From NCBI GenBank assembly GCA_041665845.1, contig JBAYIC010000007.1:3046-67045 (forward strand): DNA of 64,000 bases, in the 5' to 3' direction. The notes beneath the pieces were generated by a model. It did no database searches. It was given only the letters and a program-made list of their open reading frames with translations, and was not told the DNA's origin. Source of the stretch: Patescibacteria group bacterium (GTDB lineage Bacteria > Patescibacteriota > Patescibacteriia > Patescibacteriales > UBA12465). The translations under genes and the position numbers were made by a program. Positions 28,121-43,239 of this stretch are shown in pieces; within the stretch, counting starts at the first letter, position 1, and every line of letters starts with the position of its first letter.

Positions 28121-29011
28121 CTAAATATCGTTAAAAGCTTGATAGTTAATAATCCCTTCTATACAATAATTTATAAATCCTTCTGAAGATGCTAACCCGT
28201 CCCTTAATGCTGCCTTCCAATTATTACCACCTTTTAACAATCTTTTTGAATCGGCATCATCTTCAATCCATGTCTTAATTTTACTATATAAAATATTTTT
28301 TGCGGGCAAAGACTCTTCCCTCTTATACGTATTAATAATGATATCCATTATTGAGGATATTTCCTCGCTAGAATTTTGGGAATATTTTTCAAGCAAATTT
28401 AAGTTAATAAAATGATTTTTTATTAAGGTGGAAAAATTTATATCAAATTCTTCTGAAAAATTTAAAGAAAAAATAGGCACAAATTTATCATTTGCCGACT
28501 CTATATTACAATACAAAAATATTTCAGCAGCATCAATTGGATCAAAATAAAAATTTAAAAATTCGCGAATACCATCTTCATTCAACCATTTCTCTAATTT
28601 CTTATTATTACAATCTGAGCAACACGGAACTAAATTCAATGAAAATATTGAAAACTCCGGGAAAATACTTTTCGGTAAATAATGATCAAATGGTTTAACT
28701 GGACTAATGCCACAATATTGACAAACGTTTGAATTATTTAATTCAATAATTTTTGCTTTAATTTTGTCTAGTTGGTGTAGTATTTTTGTCTTTGTGACAT
28801 AACAAGAACGGAGGGCACTTCCTTGCCATTGTTCCCAGCTTTCTATTGGTAATAATTCAAGTTCCTTCTTTTTTAATTCATAATCATTATAACGACTTTT
28901 GACTTTATCAAAAACGCCTGAAAGGATTGCTCTCTGCGGTTCTCTTTTTTTGCCTATCATTTCAGACAAAAAATTTTCATTATTAATTTCTGGTATTTTA
29001 AGATTCTTCAT
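28121..29011 (-). CDS. HNH endonuclease (Septu PtuB-like)
   Basis: CQYCG-x8-DHYLPKS...CCSDCNNKK. ATGA overlap with the upstream ATPase gene. Confidence 0.75.
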   Translation of the reverse strand: MKNLKIPEINNENFLSEMIGKKREPQRAILSGVFDKVKSRYNDYELKKKELELLPIESWEQWQGSALRSCYVTKTKILHQLDKIKAKIIELNNSNVCQYCGISPVKPFDHYLPKSIFPEFSIFSLNLVPCCSDCNNKKLEKWLNEDGIREFLNFYFDPIDAAEIFLYCNIESANDKFVPIFSLNFSEEFDINFSTLIKNHFINLNLLEKYSQNSSEEISSIMDIIINTYKREESLPAKNILYSKIKTWIEDDADSKRLLKGGNNWKAALRDGLASSEGFINYCIEGIINYQAFNDI

Positions 29012-30906
29012 TTTTTTTTATCTCTATCAAATAAACTTTGTAGATATAATTTTGCATTAAAGCTTAATCTATTATTAAACAAGGATAAAATTTGTTTGTA
29101 GCTACTGACTTCGGCTAACTTTTTTAAAACATCTTTATAAGTAGACGCACTATAGTCTGTTTCAAAAATTTCATTAGTAATTATTGATAAATTTTCACCA
29201 AAACTTTCAATATTTAAACTATTAATAATTGGTTCTCCACCTTGTCTTTTCAAAACGTTAATATATTTTGAGGGAATCTCTTGTATTACAATTGGCGAAT
29301 GTGTAGAAATGACCGCATATGAGTCAAACTGGTTAATAATTTTATTAAGCATTCTCATAAAATTAGAAATGGCATTAGGATGAAGATGCACTTCTGGTTC
29401 ATCAATTAAAAGCAATGATTGCTCACGAATATAAGCTATTATATTAGTAAAAATATTAAGTAAAATCGCTTCGCCAGAACTAGTTTCATTAAATATCTTT
29501 TCATAATCTTTATTATTAAAATTATCAATCCCCAAAAGTTCCCCAATTACAACTTTCCATATTTCTAATCTTTCGTTTTGTTCAACACTAACCATCGCTT
29601 TAATAAATTTATCCCTTAACTCGTGTCTACTCATGAGCCTCTCTAACTTTTCTCCATTATTTTTTTCCGAGATTCTTATTCCTAAAAATAAATAACTAAA
29701 AACTTCGGTGCTTGCTTCAGGGATTTCAAATTTATCAAATACGCTATATGAAATTGCAATTATTTTACTAAAATGCGGCTTTGGTTCAAAAAATCCATAA
29801 CTATTTTTATTATTTAGCTGCCCGCTTAACGCATTCGCCATATTAGCGAGTAAACCTGTTTTGCCTGTGCCATTCTTTCCTATCAATGCATTTATTCTGT
29901 AGGGGAGCTTATCTTTTTTAAAGTTAAAAGATATCTTATGATCAGAATCAAACCCGAGAATCTTCGTTGTAAATAGAAACTGTGTATTATTCTCAAAAAC
30001 TTCATATCCAATTTTAAATAACTCGCCAGCTTCATTAAAAGCTTTTTCGGTCTCACTGAAACGCATTATTGATGTTTTCCACCCCTCATCACTTAAAAAA
30101 TCATCAGAAAATTCGCTTCCCCTAAATACAGCGTCATTTAAAGCTCTCAAAATCAGCTCATATTCCTCTACTGGTATTTTCACTACTTCTTGATAATATT
30201 CTATCGAATTCCCAAGTGAAATATAATCATCCGCTAACTTTTCAATATCATTATCGATTCTTGTAATCTTATTATTTTTTTGAAGTATTTTTATTGTTCC
30301 CAGCCTAATACTCTCTTTTTTATTTTTGTAATAAACTACATGAAATAAAGTTTGCCAATTAAAGTCATTCCAATTATCTCTAGCCAAACACAAACAAGGA
30401 TAAAAGACTGAATCTGTTTGTGGCGGTGACGGATTTAAATAGCTGCTTCCTATGTAAATTTTTAATTTCGGATAATAATTAGTTTCTCTATATTTAAATA
30501 CCGGCCTGTTAAGCAAAAAACTTGCCCTGTATAATTCATAGCCAGAATTTTTTAACAGCCGATTGAATTCGTTAAAAAGTATTAATACTTGAGCAGTCTC
30601 TTCTCTGACGGTCGGATGCAAACAAAGACAAATAAATTCTAAGAAAATATTGTCTGCGCAATTTAGTAGATTAAAACGCTCATCTTTAAAAACCCAATCA
30701 TCATCCCAATCATTCGGATTAGTTATTCTGTGTCTTATTATATCGCCAGCGGCGTCTTTATGTCTTGCGTCATATGAAGGGAGTAATGACAAGTCAAATA
30801 TTTTACTTAAAAAGTCTACATCATCTAAATTTCCATGCCAAGAAATTGAAGAAATTTTAAGAGAATCAAAAATGCTTTGTCTAATTATTTTATTAATTTT
30901 TCTCAT
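29008..30906 (-). CDS. ABC/AAA_21-type ATPase with a ~340-aa N-terminal extension (Septu PtuA-like)
   Basis: Walker A GKNGTGKT (residues 343-350), Walker B LLLIDEPEVHLHP, STHSP. The N-terminus carries SWHG, DWDDDWVF and LHPTVRE blocks. Confidence 0.75.
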   Translation of the reverse strand: MRKINKIIRQSIFDSLKISSISWHGNLDDVDFLSKIFDLSLLPSYDARHKDAAGDIIRHRITNPNDWDDDWVFKDERFNLLNCADNIFLEFICLCLHPTVREETAQVLILFNEFNRLLKNSGYELYRASFLLNRPVFKYRETNYYPKLKIYIGSSYLNPSPPQTDSVFYPCLCLARDNWNDFNWQTLFHVVYYKNKKESIRLGTIKILQKNNKITRIDNDIEKLADDYISLGNSIEYYQEVVKIPVEEYELILRALNDAVFRGSEFSDDFLSDEGWKTSIMRFSETEKAFNEAGELFKIGYEVFENNTQFLFTTKILGFDSDHKISFNFKKDKLPYRINALIGKNGTGKTGLLANMANALSGQLNNKNSYGFFEPKPHFSKIIAISYSVFDKFEIPEASTEVFSYLFLGIRISEKNNGEKLERLMSRHELRDKFIKAMVSVEQNERLEIWKVVIGELLGIDNFNNKDYEKIFNETSSGEAILLNIFTNIIAYIREQSLLLIDEPEVHLHPNAISNFMRMLNKIINQFDSYAVISTHSPIVIQEIPSKYINVLKRQGGEPIINSLNIESFGENLSIITNEIFETDYSASTYKDVLKKLAEVSSYKQILSLFNNRLSFNAKLYLQSLFDRDKKK

Positions 30907-31003
30907 TAATTTAAATTTAATAAATAAAGCTTATCAATTATTATATATAATGTATTTTAATCAATTTTATCTCTATTTATCATTATAAAAAACATTAAAA
31001 AAT

Positions 31004-31504
31004 CTAATCTAATTTTTCTTCAATTAAATTCCAACTATTTAAATATCGTTCTATGTTCCAACCATTTTCATTTTTCTTTGGTGGTATCTGGACGGAACGG
31101 AAACTAGTTTTGGCATGATGTTGCCCTTTTTTCCCCGGAGCATTAAACCATATTTCATGAGATTCTTTTACATTCCTAGCCATAACAGAAGACGGAATTA
31201 TGTAATAAGAAAAATCTTGTTTAGACTGCATAGTCGGAATACAAGCTAAAACCCAAAAAAAATTATTTCCATATTCTTTTTCTGCCTTTTTTCCAACACT
31301 GCAATCACTGTCGCTTGGACGAAAAGTTTTAACTTGAATATGGACAAATTTAGTACCTTCTTCATTACTGCAGAGAATATCGGTATTAGGACAGTTGCCC
31401 ATAGTCACTACTGCCGCATAACCTCGGCGACAAAGTTCCGCTGCAACAAAAAATTGACTCGCACTACCTCTATGATTTTTGTTTTTTGTTTTACTGCCCT
31501 GCAT
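31004..31504 (-). CDS. PD-(D/E)xK nuclease-fold protein (Hjc-like)
   Basis: E23 (AAELCRRGY), D42 (NTDILC) and Q57-V-K59 (HIQVKT) are spaced as in Hjc/PDDEXK nucleases. Confidence 0.5.
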   Translation of the reverse strand: MQGSKTKNKNHRGSASQFFVAAELCRRGYAAVVTMGNCPNTDILCSNEEGTKFVHIQVKTFRPSDSDCSVGKKAEKEYGNNFFWVLACIPTMQSKQDFSYYIIPSSVMARNVKESHEIWFNAPGKKGQHHAKTSFRSVQIPPKKNENGWNIERYLNSWNLIEEKLD

Positions 31505-31509
31505 ATATT

Positions 31510-32169
31510 TTAGATATGAAAATTATCAATTTTTCTTTTTTTATTATTTATAGCATAATCATCCAATGAAAATTTCTCCAAAGGAGTTAGTCCTCTCCCG
31601 GAATATTCGAGCGTTCTATATAAATATCCAATAAACGAACCAGCATAACGAAAACGTCTGACGCAAGCACTAATATGACTATCTACAAGATCATTATACC
31701 CCTTCCAACTAGAAAAACTCTTATCGAACTCAACCCAATAATCTACTAAATATCTTAATAGCACCAATATCTTATCGTTTGCTAGCATATTACCCTTCTG
31801 AGATAATCTCACAAGCTTAATGCTTATCCAATCACAAATTGTCTTATCTTCTTTGCTTTCTCTAGATATAAAAGTATAGAGTTTTTCTTTATATTTATTC
31901 AAAATTATATTTAGCTCATCCTCGTCTTCATATAAAGATACTGTTTTTCTTTGTCTTCTTTTCTTCTTCAACCATAACCCCTGATTATATCTTTGAAGTT
32001 GAGAAATTACTAAATCCCAATCCGTCTGATTAAATTCATCTTTTATATTGTCAACGATATATTTATACGAAACCTTACATCGATATTTTACCCAATTTAA
32101 ATGAAATGATTTCGGCTGTTTTTTTATCAACGATCTATCTATATTTCTTACAGCCTGACTTAAATCCAT
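31510..32169 (-). CDS. Hypothetical protein (219 aa)
   Basis: ORF track. 2-nt and 5-nt spacers to its neighbours. No motif recognised. Confidence 0.6.
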   Translation of the reverse strand: MDLSQAVRNIDRSLIKKQPKSFHLNWVKYRCKVSYKYIVDNIKDEFNQTDWDLVISQLQRYNQGLWLKKKRRQRKTVSLYEDEDELNIILNKYKEKLYTFISRESKEDKTICDWISIKLVRLSQKGNMLANDKILVLLRYLVDYWVEFDKSFSSWKGYNDLVDSHISACVRRFRYAGSFIGYLYRTLEYSGRGLTPLEKFSLDDYAINNKKRKIDNFHI

Positions 32170-32171
32170 TG

Positions 32172-32465
32172 TTAATCCAGATTAATTATCTTGCCGTCTT
32201 CATGTAGAAAATGATGATGATAAAATTTACCTTTAAAATTTCCACATTCTTTACACGTACTAGCTAGATAACTTTCATTACTAGTTTTACTATAATGATT
32301 TTGCAAAATCACTCCATTTTGCTTTGCAAGAGATATTTCAAGTTCATTAAACTCCTCCGGGCCTTTATATGTTCCACCATCAAAAACAAGTGCGGTTTTC
32401 ATTAATTTGCCACATTTCCAACATTCTATATCTATTACCTTTAAATATTTCTCATCTCTTTTCAT
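32172..32465 (-). CDS. Zinc-ribbon protein (97 aa)
   Basis: CWKCG ... CKECG, two CxxC pairs. Confidence 0.6.
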   Translation of the reverse strand: MKRDEKYLKVIDIECWKCGKLMKTALVFDGGTYKGPEEFNELEISLAKQNGVILQNHYSKTSNESYLASTCKECGNFKGKFYHHHFLHEDGKIINLD

Positions 32466-32470
32466 ATTTC

Positions 32471-32647
32471 TTATGTCTCTATAATTTTATAATTCTTTTG
32501 AAGATACATAAGCTCTTCAACCTTATTCTTAATAATTTCATTTTTGGTATCACAACATTCATCCTGAATTAATAAATTCAAAATGGTTGCCAAGGTTCCA
32601 AAATAATCATCCGATTTTATGTGAAATTCTAGCGATTCAATGTTCAT
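32471..32647 (-). CDS. Unannotated 58-aa ORF (MNIESLEFHIKSDDYFGTLATILNLLIQDECCDTKNEIIKNKVEELMYLQKNYKIIET)
   Basis: Found by hand. Its ATG overlaps the TGA of the 534-aa gene (ATGA), and its stop lies 5 nt before the next ATG. Confidence 0.5.
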   Translation of the reverse strand: MNIESLEFHIKSDDYFGTLATILNLLIQDECCDTKNEIIKNKVEELMYLQKNYKIIET

Positions 32648-34248
32648 ACTTTTTGTATCTTAGAAATTACAACATTATAATTTAACATTCTTAGCCTTTT
32701 ACAAACATTTGATAATGCTATTTTACTAAAAAATGGTAAATTCAACTCTTCCGCCGATGAACTTATTATTGCAAAAACAATTTGATATTCAGTAGCATTT
32801 GGTTTACTATCCGTGTCAGAGAGTTTGCAGTCAGCAGGTAAAATATTATTTACGCCATCCCTAAAAGATTTCTCTTCCAAAAACAGTTCGCCAGATACCA
32901 GCCCCTGATTAAATAAATGGCTCAAAACGCTAGAACCGCCATATATCTTAACATGAATCAATCTTTTGTTTGATTTCGAAAACAAATCACAAAATTCTAC
33001 TTTATTATTTCCGCCTCCTATTTGGATTAATTTTTTATCAAAAAGAATATAATCATTATTGTCTTCGGATACTTTTTTGTTATATCCTCCCTCACCCTTG
33101 TCATCCCCTTTTCCTGCAAAAATATTTTCTTGATAATCAGGAAGCCCTAAATTTAACTTAGGCACCGAATCAAATCTTGAATTTATATCGCTAACAAAGC
33201 TGGCATTAATTTTATACCAATTTTTATTATTTAAAATATAATAATTCCCCTCTAAAGTCGTTTCGCAATATAAACAGCTATAAATGCTCCAATCAGCGAA
33301 TTCACTCTTCGTGAAATCATAAACTCTAAACACGTCATAATAGCATTTAAGCTTCTTGATATCTAAGTCATTTAATTTATCACCTAGATAGGCCTTAAAA
33401 TCTAATAAATGTAGATCCTCAAATTGATCTTGGCTACTTTTACTATACTTAAAACCTTCAATTCCAGACCACTCTATAACCTCAGGAACAGCCAACCAGA
33501 TTTTATCTAGATTTTCACCTTTAATTCTATTAACTAACTCTTCGTCTAATTTTTCTATCAAACCGCTATTATCGACTTTTCTTATATTATTAATCCAAGC
33601 AAAATTTTCTTTATAAGCCTCACTCTTATAATATTTAAGATACTCACTCAAGAATCCTTTTATTGTTTTATAATCAGATTCTATTGTTACATGGAAAGAA
33701 TCCCTCCCCGTTATTATCCCGCCTAAATCTTCAACGCTACACTTTCCCGTAACAACATTAACTAAGTCTTGCTCTATATCGACGCCAAAATCCTTTATCT
33801 CACCACTTTTAATAAGCTGCTCTCTGGTTTTCTTTCCGCTTAACGCAAGATCGACTTTGTCGACGCTTCTTAACGTATTTGGTGTAACTAAATTTAATGT
33901 AGTAAACAATCCAAAATCATCTTCACAAACGTCTTTTTTGAGCAGGCTTTTTCCATATCCAAAAACTAGGGCTAATACTCTCTCGTCAACTTCTGTTAAA
34001 AAAACAGCCCTTGTATTTGAGTTACAAAAGCTGATATCACCAAGGGTATCGATGCCAAAAAATTTTTTCAACCAGTTTGGTTCACTTTTTTTGGACTCGG
34101 AGAAATAAAGTGTCCCAATAATCTCATCACCATTTTTTATTTCTTCTTTTTCAAGCGCATCAAAATTATCCACAATATCTTCAAAATCTTTAAACTGTGT
34201 CTTTATGAAAAAAACGGCTATTTTATTTTTATTTTTTCTAGCTGGCAT
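32644..34248 (-). CDS. TIGR04141/DUF6119-like 'sporadically distributed' protein (534 aa)
   Basis: Length and blocks (LVFGYG, DDFGL..TLNLV, ITGRDS, EFCDL-x9-LIHVK..GSSVLSHLFNQG) match my memory of that family. Not verified. Confidence 0.55.
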   Translation of the reverse strand: MPARKNKNKIAVFFIKTQFKDFEDIVDNFDALEKEEIKNGDEIIGTLYFSESKKSEPNWLKKFFGIDTLGDISFCNSNTRAVFLTEVDERVLALVFGYGKSLLKKDVCEDDFGLFTTLNLVTPNTLRSVDKVDLALSGKKTREQLIKSGEIKDFGVDIEQDLVNVVTGKCSVEDLGGIITGRDSFHVTIESDYKTIKGFLSEYLKYYKSEAYKENFAWINNIRKVDNSGLIEKLDEELVNRIKGENLDKIWLAVPEVIEWSGIEGFKYSKSSQDQFEDLHLLDFKAYLGDKLNDLDIKKLKCYYDVFRVYDFTKSEFADWSIYSCLYCETTLEGNYYILNNKNWYKINASFVSDINSRFDSVPKLNLGLPDYQENIFAGKGDDKGEGGYNKKVSEDNNDYILFDKKLIQIGGGNNKVEFCDLFSKSNKRLIHVKIYGGSSVLSHLFNQGLVSGELFLEEKSFRDGVNNILPADCKLSDTDSKPNATEYQIVFAIISSSAEELNLPFFSKIALSNVCKRLRMLNYNVVISKIQKV

Positions 34249-34268
34249 ATGGTTTTATTCATATTTTT

Positions 34269-34297
34269 ATACTACCTCTAAACAAAATTATAATCAA
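34269..34297 (-). promoter_or_regulatory. Sigma70-like promoter of the 534-aa operon
   Basis: Minus strand TTGATT-17 nt-TAGTAT, about 20 nt upstream of ATG 34248. Confidence 0.55.
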
Positions 34298-34380
34298 TTT
34301 TTTCTCTAAAATTAAAGAATCTTTACTGCCATGTTATATAGCATATTACATGGTTTTGGCTAATAATAAAGCAAATACTC

Positions 34381-34409
34381 TTGCACAATATTTTTAAATA
34401 TGCTAGACT
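34381..34409 (+). promoter_or_regulatory. Sigma70-like promoter
   Basis: TTGCAC-17 nt-TAGACT on the plus strand. Confidence 0.55.
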
Positions 34410-34415
34410 GTGGAT

Positions 34416-34892
34416 AAGTGAAATTAACAACCGAATTTAACCTGTATCTCTATAACGTAGAGAAAGATAGAATAAGCGATACTTCAGGGCGACTATTCCA
34501 AGAACTGCGGTAAAGCTATATTCAAACAGAAATATATTACTATTTACAGAAAAGCCCAAGGCTATTAGCAAGGAGCTGGACTATAAATGAAAGAATATGT
34601 TTCGAAGACTATTAGTCTTAATCTAATTTACGTGAGATAAAATGCGTTTGTGTTTTAGTGCCTGTTGGCAATAAAAACTAAAACAGAAACAGCATTTGAA
34701 TAGGTTTGTAATACTATCTATACCCTTATCGACGAAAGTCGGAGATAATAAGCCAGTATAGTTGCAAGGTTATAAATCGAAGGTAAGAGACAAGTTTAAT
34801 AACAAGATTATTTAAACTGGTCATTACTTTTGATTTGTAACCTTTTTTATTTATCAAACAGTAGACCAGTCGAATAATCGGCTGGTTTTTTT
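34416..34892 (+). ncRNA. Candidate ~480-nt structured RNA or long attenuator leader upstream of the ParB-methylase gene
   Basis: No ORF of 60 aa or more on either strand across ~670 bp. A promoter sits at 34381 and a terminator at 34865-34892. Long helices lie at 34639-34697, 34716-34761 (GAAA tetraloop) and 34768-34842. Confidence 0.45.
34865..34892 (+). terminator. Intrinsic terminator 28 nt upstream of the methylase start codon
   Basis: Stem accagtcg/cggctggt (one G-U pair), 6-nt loop, T7 run. Confidence 0.7.
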
Positions 34893-34919
34893 AAAAAACC
34901 AACTTAAATATTTATCTAT

Positions 34920-36185
34920 ATGAGTATAAACTCTAAAGAAAAATTAAAAATTGAAGAAGTAAATATCGCCCTGCTAAAACAATCCGAATATAATCCCAGA
35001 AAATTAAGCGATAAACAAGAAGAAACACTAACTAAAAGCATTAAAGAATACCAATTATTAGATCCGCTAATAGTAAATAATTACAAAGGCAGAGAAAATA
35101 TTATTATTTCAGGTCATCAACGCTATAAGGTGGCAAAGAAACTGGGTTATAAAGAAGTTCCCGTGGTTTATGTTTGTCTAAATCTAGAAAATGAAAAAAG
35201 ATTAAATTTACTAATGAACAAAGCGCAAGGAGAATGGAATTATGAGCTTCTTCAGTCTTTCGACGTAGACCTATTGCTAGACACTGGTTTTGACGAAATA
35301 GATTTTTCTAAAATATTTGATGAGACTATGGAAACTGAAGATGACGGATTTAATATTAGCAAGGAATTAGAAAAAGCTAAGACTACCGATATCAAACCTG
35401 GCGACATATTTAAAATTTGTGGACAAACTGTTTTATGCGGCGATTCAACAGATCCGGAAGTTATTAAAAAATTAATGGGCGAAGAAAAAGCCGATATAAT
35501 CTTAAACGATCCTCCTTATAATCTGAATATTTCATACTCAAGGGGCTTAAGCGGTAACATGAACTACTGTGGTCAAGTTGATGATAATAAAAGTGATTCT
35601 GAATATCGAGAATTTATCAAAAAATCTCTGGCTAACGGATTAGCGGTCAGCAAAAAAAATTTACATGTTTTTTATTACCACGACCCAAAATATACGGGTA
35701 TGTTTCAAGATATCTATAAAGAACTGGGAGTCCAGTATAAAAGAACTGCCCTTTGGATCAAGAATAATGCCAACATGACCCCGCAAGTAGCATTCAATAG
35801 GTGCTACGAACCAATACTATATGGAACAACAGGAAAACCCTATCTTTCTGATGTTAAAAATTTTAACGAGATTATTAACAAAGAGGTTGGTGTCGGCAAT
35901 AGAGCAATAGAAGATATCCTTGACCTACTAGACATATGGCTGGTTAAACGTTTGCCTAGCACAGATTACGAGCATCCAACGGACAAAAATCCAACACTTC
36001 ATGAAAAAGCTTTAAGGCGGTGTACAAAAGTTAATGACGTTGTTCTTGATATGTTTGGCGGTGGAGGTTCTTTGGCTATCGCTTGTGCGCAATTAAAGCG
36101 TAGGAGTTTTATTTGCGAACAAAGCCCAATTTTTACACAATTAATAGTCAATCGACTTAAAATATATGAAAATACAAAAAATTAA
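34920..36185 (+). CDS. ParB-like nuclease domain fused to a beta-class N6-adenine/N4-cytosine DNA methyltransferase
   Basis: N-terminus EYNPRK...ISGHQRYKVAKKLG (ParB/Srx fold). Motif IV LNDPPY precedes motif I DMFGGGGS. Confidence 0.85.
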   Translation: MSINSKEKLKIEEVNIALLKQSEYNPRKLSDKQEETLTKSIKEYQLLDPLIVNNYKGRENIIISGHQRYKVAKKLGYKEVPVVYVCLNLENEKRLNLLMNKAQGEWNYELLQSFDVDLLLDTGFDEIDFSKIFDETMETEDDGFNISKELEKAKTTDIKPGDIFKICGQTVLCGDSTDPEVIKKLMGEEKADIILNDPPYNLNISYSRGLSGNMNYCGQVDDNKSDSEYREFIKKSLANGLAVSKKNLHVFYYHDPKYTGMFQDIYKELGVQYKRTALWIKNNANMTPQVAFNRCYEPILYGTTGKPYLSDVKNFNEIINKEVGVGNRAIEDILDLLDIWLVKRLPSTDYEHPTDKNPTLHEKALRRCTKVNDVVLDMFGGGGSLAIACAQLKRRSFICEQSPIFTQLIVNRLKIYENTKN

Positions 36186-36918
36186 ACGTGGGGATATTAT
36201 CCAACTCGGGGAGCATCGATTACTCTTCGGCGACTCACGCGACCAAGAAAAAATTAAAGAGCTTATTGGAAACAGTAAAATTAATTTAATATTAAGCGAC
36301 CCTCCTTATGGAATCGACTATGTCGCTAGTAAGTCGGGTTTTAGTCAGAGCCTTGGAAAGCCTAAGGATATAGCTAACGATCAACTTCAAAGTGAAGATG
36401 AATATATTAAATTTACAGAAGATTGGCTAAAAGTTATTCTGCCATATCTTGATAGAAAAAACTCTATCTATATATTCAACTCTGACAAGATGATATTTGC
36501 CTTAAGACAGGCCATGAAGAATATTGGCATATATTTTTCCCAGCTGTTAATCTGGGCAAAAAGTAATGCCGTTATAGGTAGACTGGACTATCTTCCAATG
36601 CACGAGTTAATCGCTTATGGTTGGTTTGGCACACATTCTTTCAAAAAAAGTAAAGATAAAAGCATTCTGTTTTGTCCAAAACCAAGCAAGAGCAAATTAC
36701 ACCCGACGATTAAACCCCTTTCACTTTTAAGACGGCTAATACTTAATAGTACTAATATTGGAGATGTTGTCTACGATGGTTTTGGCGGATCGGGTAGTAC
36801 ACTTATGGCAGCCGAAATGATAGGACGGAAATGTTTAATGGTTGAGACTGACGAGGAATACTGCCAAACAATAATTAACAGATATTATCGACTGAAAAAT
36901 ATATCTGAATCACTATGA
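36166..36918 (+). CDS. DNA methyltransferase (beta-class, DPPY)
   Basis: LSDPPYG ... DGFGGSGST. Overlaps the upstream methylase gene by 20 nt. Confidence 0.85.
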   Translation: MKIQKIKRGDIIQLGEHRLLFGDSRDQEKIKELIGNSKINLILSDPPYGIDYVASKSGFSQSLGKPKDIANDQLQSEDEYIKFTEDWLKVILPYLDRKNSIYIFNSDKMIFALRQAMKNIGIYFSQLLIWAKSNAVIGRLDYLPMHELIAYGWFGTHSFKKSKDKSILFCPKPSKSKLHPTIKPLSLLRRLILNSTNIGDVVYDGFGGSGSTLMAAEMIGRKCLMVETDEEYCQTIINRYYRLKNISESL

Positions 36919-37433
36919 GCGGGTATAATAAAAAGAATGTTACGGTGGCGGACATTCTTAAACGAAAGGAGCTTGAAAAAAATAAACAAGCTCAAAAAAA
37001 TAAACGCCAAGAAAACGACAATAAACGAAAACTGACTGCTATTGAAAAAAGACAACAGGAACAGAAGATGCAAATGATTGAAGAGATACGTAATGTTTAT
37101 ATTCCTTCTATTGCCTGCCAAAAAACTGGTATATCTAGAGCGACTCTATATCGTTGGATGGCTGATGATTATAATTTTAATAAAGAGTTTACAAAGAGTC
37201 GAGTGGAAGGACGAGGTGCTATAAATGATTTAGCTGAATCAAAAATTGTTAGTAAAATTAAAAACGATGACACCAAAGCAACAATTTTTTGGTTAACCCA
37301 TATGCATCCAAACTTCATTAATCCTATTCTTTCAATATCAGAGGAGACAAAAGAAAAAATGAAACTATCCCCCGAATATTTGACTGGTCTCGCCAAAAGA
37401 TTAGCTCAATGGAAAAGAGAAAACTTACACTAA
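36915..37433 (+). CDS. HTH protein, phage terminase-small-subunit/phBC6A51-like
   Basis: GISRATLYRWM HTH followed by ATIFWLTHMHPNF. ATGA overlap with the methylase gene. Confidence 0.45.
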   Translation: MSGYNKKNVTVADILKRKELEKNKQAQKNKRQENDNKRKLTAIEKRQQEQKMQMIEEIRNVYIPSIACQKTGISRATLYRWMADDYNFNKEFTKSRVEGRGAINDLAESKIVSKIKNDDTKATIFWLTHMHPNFINPILSISEETKEKMKLSPEYLTGLAKRLAQWKRENLH

Positions 37434-43176: not shown

Positions 43177-43239
43177 AAAAGTATATAAATATTATAACAT
43201 ATTTAATAATTTTGGTATAACCTTTTTTATTTAGCTTAC

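Follow-up and report, generated by a model that had tools for sequence, protein, structure and literature searches.

A conserved structured RNA at the head of a Patescibacteria DNA methylase operon, a likely transcription attenuator with tandem terminators

In attenuators of the trp-leader type and in ON-riboswitches, a promoter-proximal untranslated leader carries mutually exclusive pairings and ends in a terminator placed immediately 5' of the open reading frame (ORF). In ON-riboswitches, it is the P1 helix that competes with the terminator. Patescibacteria (Candidate Phyla Radiation, CPR) have tiny and poorly understood genomes, and to our knowledge almost nothing is known of their RNA-based regulation or of the control of their mobile elements. 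Here we describe a leader region found in a 64,000-nucleotide (nt) stretch of DNA from a Patescibacteria group bacterium (contig JBAYIC010000007.1; this whole stretch is called the window below). The predicted RNA of ~480 nt is encoded on the plus strand at 34416-34892, from its probable start to the last U-tract, directly ahead of an operon beginning with a ParB-domain DNA methylase, and it ends in two hairpins, T1 and T2. It is a previously uncatalogued structured RNA, real and conserved, and most likely represents a default-off attenuator leader with a coupled two-terminator switch. As an RNA class it is new; the kind of regulation is a known one.

The leader agrees with the attenuator and riboswitch platforms in being untranslated and promoter-proximal, with a predicted promoter of its own and a predicted intrinsic terminator directly 5' of the ORF. 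Its exclusive pairings are conserved, the 5' arm of T1 having two possible partners, and the terminated form is its predicted default. It departs from them in lacking a known aptamer, leader peptide, RNA-binding-protein site or Rfam match, in its length, which includes a large extra 5' domain, and in its setting, a Patescibacteria mobile element in which DNA methylases would be the controlled genes.

The closest described system appears to be the zipper-type attenuator cATT, which lies in the 456-nt leader of the conjugation operon of pLS20 and sets a precedent for long attenuator leaders on mobile elements (PMC13401043). There, a strand located 5' of a long stem-loop pairs with the 5' arm of the terminator and lengthens the long stem, and by default the leader is anti-terminated (PMC13401043). 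Both leaders are long, head a mobile-element operon and contain a small stem-loop, a long imperfect stem-loop and a terminator just before the first gene, in the window represented by hairpin 34718-61, long hairpin 34766-34844 (T1) and terminator 34863-92 (T2). Participation of the long stem-loop in antitermination, reported for pLS20 (PMC13401043), is also a feature of the model proposed below. The two systems differ in that the long hairpin of the present leader is terminator-like and its own 3' strand pairs with the terminator, in that the terminated form is the predicted default, and in that their sequences show no similarity. The zipper-type topology itself was rejected: the 70 nt upstream of T1 pair with the T2 5' arm at -7.6 to -10.1 kcal/mol and not colinearly, whereas in the same duplex comparison the T1 3' strand reaches -15.9 to -19.4 kcal/mol.

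The leader is located in a gap of 671 bp (34249-34919) between a DUF6119/TIGR04141 gene (32644-34248, minus strand) and the ParB_N-N6_N4 methylase gene (domains ParB_N and N6_N4_Mtase; 34920-36185, plus strand). The original prediction had described this gap as free of ORFs of 60 or more amino acids (aa), and its longest ORFs indeed measure 44, 43 and 31 aa. None of them is kept across the homologous leaders compared, nor did these reveal a conserved small protein that could explain the region. Two candidates were discarded: a 17-aa ORF at 34588, preceded by AAGGAG, is destroyed in L093 and L177 (L numbers denote the loci compared), and a 44-aa minus-strand ORF with a TTG start exists in close relatives only.

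The window belongs to the ENA metagenome contig ERZ27249449 k141_579730 (112 kb), and identical copies of the leader region occur in a second sample (L002). A scan based on methylase alignments took in 160 loci. With nhmmer and a covariance model of the 3' domain, the same RNA, termed type A, was found directly 5' of the methylase in L093 (97% identical), L024 and L025 (=L100), and look-ups of closer methylases added L177/L178/L181 and L176. Type A homologues thus occupy the same slot, ahead of related ParB-methylases, in five other Patescibacteria or metagenome lineages; the closest methylase homologues are annotated as Patescibacteria, Paceibacterota or Falkowbacteria. Two further look-ups for type A members returned leaders of another type, D. 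The same operon follows the RNA in every type A locus, while the divergent gene on the left varies: DUF6119, an OLD-TOPRIM ATPase with a UvrD helicase (Gabija-like), a reverse transcriptase (RT) with a helix-turn-helix (HTH) and a PDDEXK protein, or a 352-aa protein. Because the operon is constant and the left gene variable, the RNA belongs with the methylase operon and not with DUF6119; a link to the latter was rejected, the left neighbour being different in every lineage.

The original prediction recognised no Rfam family in the region and named a covariance-model search as a check. Rfam 15, with GOLLD, ROOL, HEARO, OLE, raiA, riboswitches, T-box, EAR, C4, ribozymes and group I/II introns among the models tested, gave no family for the leader at gathering score or E<=10, either in the window or in 12 homologous loci. 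At gathering score the window matches three tRNAs only, and the best matches within 34100-35050 (E ~1) are eukaryotic microRNA and small nucleolar RNA models far below threshold. The RNA found no match by blastn in annotated phage and plasmid collections, and an exact 18-mer of a T1 arm is absent from IMG/VR.

Dense RNA structure extends over ~440 nt of the plus strand. Folded as RNA, plus-strand positions 34410-34900 reach -145.4 kcal/mol (z = -9.3 against dinucleotide shuffles; the minimum free energy of the predicted RNA is -138.8 to -145.4 kcal/mol), and the minus strand gives z = -5.0; with DNA parameters the values are -76.7 (plus) versus -63.5 kcal/mol (minus). The homologue set consists of six sequences from about four independent lineages. 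RNAalifold applied to the four full-length sequences yielded 161 pairs in 18 helices, and these pairs are formed in 97.2% of cells. Both sides have changed in 19 of the 161 pairs, versus 0-2 when the partners are slid by 1-3 columns, and none of 500 column shuffles reached the observed pairing values. In the 3' domain, compared in all six sequences, 13 pairs changed on both sides versus 1-4 in slid controls. The structure is therefore kept in relatives with compensatory changes, in answer to the covariation check named in the original prediction, and conserved G-U pairs and G-U intermediates assign it to the plus strand.

The core of the fold is closed by strands at 34439-34450: AACCU (34439-43) pairs with AGGUU (34702-06), and UAUCUC (34445-50) pairs with GAGAUA (34634-39). 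By eye, the core strands AACCU, UAUCUC and GAGAUA are also kept in the shorter leaders of L024 and L025. An initial covariance model, which closed the 3' domain by GAGAUAAAA and the U-tract, was abandoned, as full-length homologues pair GAGAUA with UAUCUC instead. Inserted into the core is a variable, multi-branched 5' domain (34452-34633) with helices 34455-61/34627-33, 34470-90/34502-23, 34529-49/34581-603 and 34605-19, which show compensatory changes when L176 is compared with the window. In L024 and L025 this domain is far smaller, and the leader measures 388-389 nt versus ~500 elsewhere. All three helices proposed originally (34640-34697, 34718-34761 and 34766-34844) are predicted and supported by covariation. 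The first is a long hairpin of 22 bp with a GCC/GGC tip, in which 8 of 19 pairs changed on both sides among the six sequences. The second, the inner hairpin, is built of CUAUAC/GUAUAG, CUUAU/AUAAG and CGAC-GAAA-GUCG with an asymmetric loop GAGAUA, and four of the six pairs in 34718-23/34756-61 covary in the same set. The GAAA loop of its cgac-GAAA-gtcg tip is not conserved (GUAA in L176, AUU in L024, CUUU in L025). Helix 1, which pairs the 5' end with sequence just past T1, shows no covariation.

T1 (34766-34852) is composed of a long hairpin, 34766-34802/34808-34844 (-32.9 kcal/mol), followed by the U-tract UUUUUUAUUU (34843-52). The tract makes T1 itself terminator-like, and the leader thus appears to end in two terminators in tandem. 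In no lineage do the 18 bp at the base of T1 vary, three G-U pairs included, while its tip varies in sequence and length; the helix 34768-78/34832-42, noted originally for a U-G pair that works on the plus strand only, falls within this lower stem. After 11 nt follows T2 (34863-34892), a canonical intrinsic terminator of the form AGACCAGUCGA-AUAA-UCGGCUGGUUU, whose hairpin (34863-34888, -14.7 kcal/mol) and U7 (34886-92) bear out the strong terminator first proposed there. It ends 27 nt 5' of the methylase ATG. The scan tool missed it, probably because extension of the stem consumes three U residues. L176, L024 and L025 have at the T2 position a hairpin of different sequence, again with a U-tract. 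Transcription would be expected to terminate at both T1 and T2.

The promoter predicted at 34381-34409, TTGCAC-17-TAGACT, is present in the sequence: a -35 box TTGCAC (34381-86) and a -10 box TAGACT (34404-09) are separated by a 17-nt spacer containing an upstream TG, so that the extended -10 box reads TGCTAGACT (34401-09). The -35 box matches the consensus at three of six positions, and this weakness explains why the consensus scan did not list the promoter. A TGCTAnnnT box is found at the equivalent place and distance in all type A homologues and in other leader types. As the extended -10 box is conserved at the head of every leader, transcription probably starts near 34416 (~34415-17). Sequence scan and homologue comparison gave no conserved promoter between T2 and the methylase ATG, and there is no room for one; an internal candidate, TTATCA-16-AATAAT (34851-78), is kept in close relatives only and was rejected.

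Both terminators can be opposed by alternative pairings. The upstream word GGUUUGUAAU (34703-12) resembles the 3' arm of T1, GAUUUGUAAC, and pairs with GUUAUAAAUC (34769-78) in the T1 5' arm. This helix, anti-terminator 1, closes a 76-nt domain (34703-34778) around hairpin 34718-61, a candidate sensor. In isolation the domain reaches -17.4 kcal/mol; the closing helix is paired in 95% of cells versus 30-50% when slid, and in folds of transcripts without the T1 3' arm the T1 5' arm pairs with GGUUUGUAAU in five of five lineages. In the full-length fold, AACCU (34439-43) holds the upstream word 34703-12. Changes in anti-terminator 1 are one-sided only, because its partner, the T1 5' arm, never varies; such invariance would be expected if the arm must fit two partners that resemble each other. 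Anti-terminator 2 (34807-34877) is formed by the T1 3' strand (34807-35), which is complementary to the linker, the T2 5' arm and the T2 loop (34852-77). Its duplex has -18.6 kcal/mol in the window, where none of 300 shuffles was as good, and -14.8 to -19.0 kcal/mol in L177, L176, L024 and L025; it recurs in other lineages with different sequences, those of L024 and L025 among them, and is significant in all five (z = -2.7 to -4.6; 0-4 of 300 shuffles as good). The alternative fold ACUGGUC/GACCAGU, originally proposed to oppose the terminator, holds as the centre of this duplex, but it is one link of a longer relay that includes T1. Forcing anti-terminator 2 alone makes anti-terminator 1 appear in the optimal fold in five of five lineages. 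The resulting anti-terminated (ON) fold is coherent in all five and lies 14-19 kcal/mol above the terminated (OFF) fold.

We propose, with moderate confidence, that the region is a ~480-nt 5' leader of the ParB-methylase operon that acts in cis as a transcription attenuator through a relay of alternating helices. In the OFF state, the thermodynamically favoured default, segment 1 (34439-43) would hold segment 2 (34702-12), T1 (34766-34844 and its U-tract) and T2 (34863-92) would form, and transcripts would stop ahead of the methylase ATG. In the ON state, segment 2 would pair with the 5' arm of T1 and close the 76-nt domain 34703-34778; the freed 3' strand of T1 would pair with the 5' arm of T2, and, both terminators being absent, RNA polymerase would read into the operon. 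With segments numbered along the transcript, OFF would correspond to 1:2 + 3:4 (T1) + 5:6 (T2) and ON to 2:3 + 4:5. Unlike in the attenuator and riboswitch platforms, the two terminators would thus be coupled, 2:3 freeing 4 and 4:5 disabling 5:6. Because the ON fold is less stable, it would need an input that stabilises 34703-34778 or blocks T1, which could be a protein or a small ligand. Conserved structure, operon linkage and conserved alternative complementarities are observed; switching and its input are deduced from the model. If the relay model is true, it offers a concrete, testable case of a coupled double-terminator switch and a way into the question of when DNA modification is turned on in such elements.

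The same slot is occupied by other leaders elsewhere. Ahead of related ParB-methylases (56-77% identity) lie ORF-free leaders of 170-300 nt, among which at least three further, mutually unrelated structured types can be distinguished: type B (L023, L097, L169, L021, L034, L028), type C (L018, L019, L004, L027, L102) and type D (L013-L017, L094, L095, L173-L175, L179, L182-L185). They share the promoter box with type A and finish in a long hairpin with UUUUUUAUU; otherwise their sequences are unrelated. Most of them are significantly structured on the plus strand, and the type A model scores weakly against types B and C, each match falling at the correct position and strand. Leader types and methylase phylogeny are at odds, suggestive of an exchange of modules: type A accompanies methylases 74% and 62% identical to that of the window, type D those with 75-77% and 72%. 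That unrelated leaders are swapped between nearly identical operons suggests that selection acts on the regulatory RNA itself. L003 and L004 lie on one 32.5-kb contig classed as viral (IMGVR_UViG_3300042286_000458), which carries two ParB-methylase modules with 64-66% identity to that of the window, one with a type C leader and the other directly behind a 120-aa ORF.

Type D leaders contain a perfect 12-17-nt complement of methylase codons +36 to +60 (VSISSLK; for example L173:673-689 against L173:856-872), with matching changes between subtypes, such as AAAGAGCUAAUAGAAA versus AAGGAGCU.A.AGCAA. The complement could serve RNA-level control of the methylase through leader-mRNA pairing, in the manner of the P1/P7 c4 and P4 CI antisense RNAs, or it could represent the inverted repeats of an invertible DNA switch. 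As with c4 and CI, the RNA is encoded in the leader of the operon it would control, and a target complement is present in these sister leaders. Unlike them, the type A leader of the window has no conserved target complement and does not match Rfam C4; its antisense pairing to the ORF and operon is at chance level and at non-equivalent positions. A 14-nt inverted match of a T2 arm at 37377-90 was dismissed as an antisense target for the same reasons, being at chance level and not conserved in position.

Several points weigh against the attenuator proposal. The structural evidence comes from six sequences and about four independent lineages, and the transcription start, the transcript ends and any read-through are all deduced from sequence. 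Anti-terminator 1 cannot show compensatory change, its partner being invariant, and another reason for the T1 stem to stay invariant could be that a protein recognises it or that it has a role at the DNA level. The OFF state is predicted to be so much stabler that a switch is difficult to envisage unless a strong effector intervenes, and the model gives no role to the large 5' domain. Finally, a promoter of its own together with two strong terminators would equally fit a stand-alone RNA gene.

Such a gene is possible, though we consider it doubtful: a non-coding RNA of the mobile element, ~440-480 nt long, would act in trans, for instance as an immunity or regulatory RNA or as a protein-binding scaffold, the methylases would be served by leak-through, and the alternative pairings would be incidental. 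Pairing of the 5' end with sequence just past T1 (helix 1) recalls many stable RNAs, but helix 1 does not covary. Size and number of helices exceed the needs of a simple attenuator, unrelated types are swapped between closely related methylases in the way of immunity determinants, and the methylase complement of type D would suit a trans-acting antisense RNA equally well; type A, however, has no conserved complementarity to targets downstream or upstream. Without regulated read-through, the conserved pairing of the T1 3' strand with the T2 5' arm would be difficult to account for, and the methylase has no promoter of its own. The original prediction had offered either a stand-alone RNA or an antitermination leader. 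The leader is favoured over a separate gene because the RNA always travels with the operon while the other side varies, because no conserved promoter separates T2 from the ATG, and because the terminator and anti-terminator alternatives are conserved.

A more far-reaching form of the attenuator proposal is speculative and, in our estimate, unlikely. The leader would then be a new sensory RNA class, with a ligand or protein binding 34703-34778 or the whole 440-nt fold, its two-terminator relay would gate the establishment or anti-restriction methylases of Patescibacteria mobile elements, and a single family of elements carrying defence islands would use leader types A-D as interchangeable cassettes for specificity or immunity.

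Improbable, in turn, is a cis-acting processive-antitermination RNA of the put, EAR or conAn2 kind, for which there is precedent in the literature (PMC8191782, PMC10325885). Here the leader would modify its own RNA polymerase to ignore T1, T2 and later terminators, which would serve to block incoming transcription. As in HK022 put, EAR, conAn2 and the lambda pR'-6S RNA-tR' region, a short transcript with a constitutive promoter and a terminator would precede a phage-like operon, and read-through would be needed. A structured leader with terminators does head a mobile-element operon, and some relatives have a LexA/CI-like repressor gene divergent to this operon, an arrangement that recalls the early or late operons of phage-like elements. 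Nonetheless, the leader shows no similarity to an Rfam family and carries pairings that disrupt T1 and T2 specifically, for which processive antitermination has no need; terminators with long stems, as in T1, moreover withstand conAn antitermination at least (PMC10325885). The element of this leader revealed no factor resembling Q, N or ConAn1.

Two observations bring the DNA itself into play. In the leading regions of plasmids, ParB-methylases are found behind Frpo/ssi single-stranded-DNA promoters (PMC11541004, PMC7736820), and the present locus likewise places several hundred ORF-free, strongly self-complementary bases directly 5' of an orphan ParB-domain methylase on a mobile element. In addition, an exact 16-nt direct repeat, TAACCTTTTTTATTTA, occurs at 34838-34853 (T1 3' arm and U-tract) and at 43218-43233, between the start of the type IIG restriction-modification (R-M) gene and the tRNA-Ser terminator at the island edge; the copies bracket an 8.4-kb block with the methylases, the recombinase and the R-M gene, and could possibly be an att repeat or a shared protein site. 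As an att site the repeat is suggestive in the window, but it was set aside because it is not reproduced in L180. A Frpo-like promoter was likewise set aside: the hexamers at 34381-34409 are not in a stem, lying outside conserved helices and largely unpaired in DNA folds of either strand, and it is the sense strand, not the template, that carries the G-U pairs and folds better. No relaxase or type IV secretion genes were found among the island genes examined. A DNA-level element, be it a single-stranded-DNA promoter, an origin of replication or transfer, or an attachment site for a recombinase with the invariant T1 repeat at its centre, is very improbable despite the invariant arms and the nearby serine recombinase gene, since conserved G-U pairs and intermediates work on the sense strand only while Frpo folds the template strand, the plus strand is the stabler one with RNA and DNA parameters alike, a normal double-strand promoter and terminators are present, and in all loci the RNA and the methylase remain together on either side of the 16-nt repeat.

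The leader and the methylase operon belong to an island of ~15 kb bounded by housekeeping genes and tRNA-Ser/RecG. According to Pfam, PADLOC and PHROGs, the ParB_N-N6_N4 methylase is followed on the plus strand by a second N6_N4 methylase (36166-36918) and by a 172-aa protein resembling a small terminase subunit or an HTH protein (36915-37433); the gene order is kept in all related loci, and this operon (34920-37433) presumably comprises the genes controlled by the leader. The 172-aa protein has no Pfam match and matches PHROG 4102 weakly (E = 2.5e-7), and its L182 orthologue gives a weak match to Sf6_terminase, a hint that the module is of phage- or satellite-like descent. Beyond the operon, the island encodes a Zn-ribbon protein (minus strand), a large serine recombinase (CcrB/integrase-like) and, adjoining it, the type IIG R-M gene. 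The host module would thus be a small integrative one within a defence island, made up of the leader, two methylases, the terminase-small-subunit-like protein, the Zn-ribbon protein and the large serine recombinase. An RNA larger than most riboswitches here heads a portable module with orphan DNA methylases and a serine recombinase, around which defence systems have assembled: DUF6119, AbiJ/PtuA-like, Gabija-like, RT-based and type IIG R-M.

The left-flank cargo of the module is of defence type and differs by lineage (window 28121-34248; L180:1-9452; L181:1-7012). In the window it comprises an HNH-like gene, an AbiJ-AAA gene (PtuA/PDC-M01A-like) and DUF6119; elsewhere it consists of an OLD-TOPRIM ATPase, UvrD (Gabija-like) and a PIF1 helicase, or of RT, HTH and PDDEXK genes. 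A search of viral contigs with the DUF6119 protein gave no match, and a literature search on DUF6119 yielded nothing relevant. Beside the recombinase stands, depending on lineage, the type IIG R-M gene, an HSDR_N-like gene or a DpnII-like gene. In L181:7013-7650 (= L177:1799-2440), ~600 nt of further ORF-free DNA separate a 93-aa gene of the RT-HTH-PDDEXK cluster from the leader promoter; this stretch may be a non-coding RNA of the reverse-transcriptase system.

A short inverted repeat, CCATGT...ACATGG, lies just 5' of the -35 box between two related boxes, TCTAAAATTAAAG and GCTAATAATAAAGC (34306-34318, 34329-34353 and 34359-34372). Similar boxes are also present in loci of types B and D (GCTAACATTAAAC and GCTAAAGTTAGAC; palindromic CTAAnnTTAG), and some of these loci adjoin a divergent LexA/S24 repressor gene. 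The boxes are probably operator sites of a switch region. The stretch from the start codon of the left gene to the first box (tatactacctctaaacaaaattataatcaatttttt) is conserved between window 34249-34300 and L182:1057-1130, even though the window has DUF6119 and a type A leader and L182 a 1191-aa gene and a type D leader; because of this conservation, the start codon of a common divergent promoter region seems to be the exact point at which cargo genes are exchanged.

Shine-Dalgarno sequences are almost absent from the 25 nt upstream of 48 window ORFs, so the bare 27-nt spacer between T2 and the methylase ATG is unremarkable in this genome. In several window genes a TATAAT-like box lies 7-15 nt ahead of the ATG, a position which suggests that leaderless or very short-leader mRNAs are frequent in this organism.

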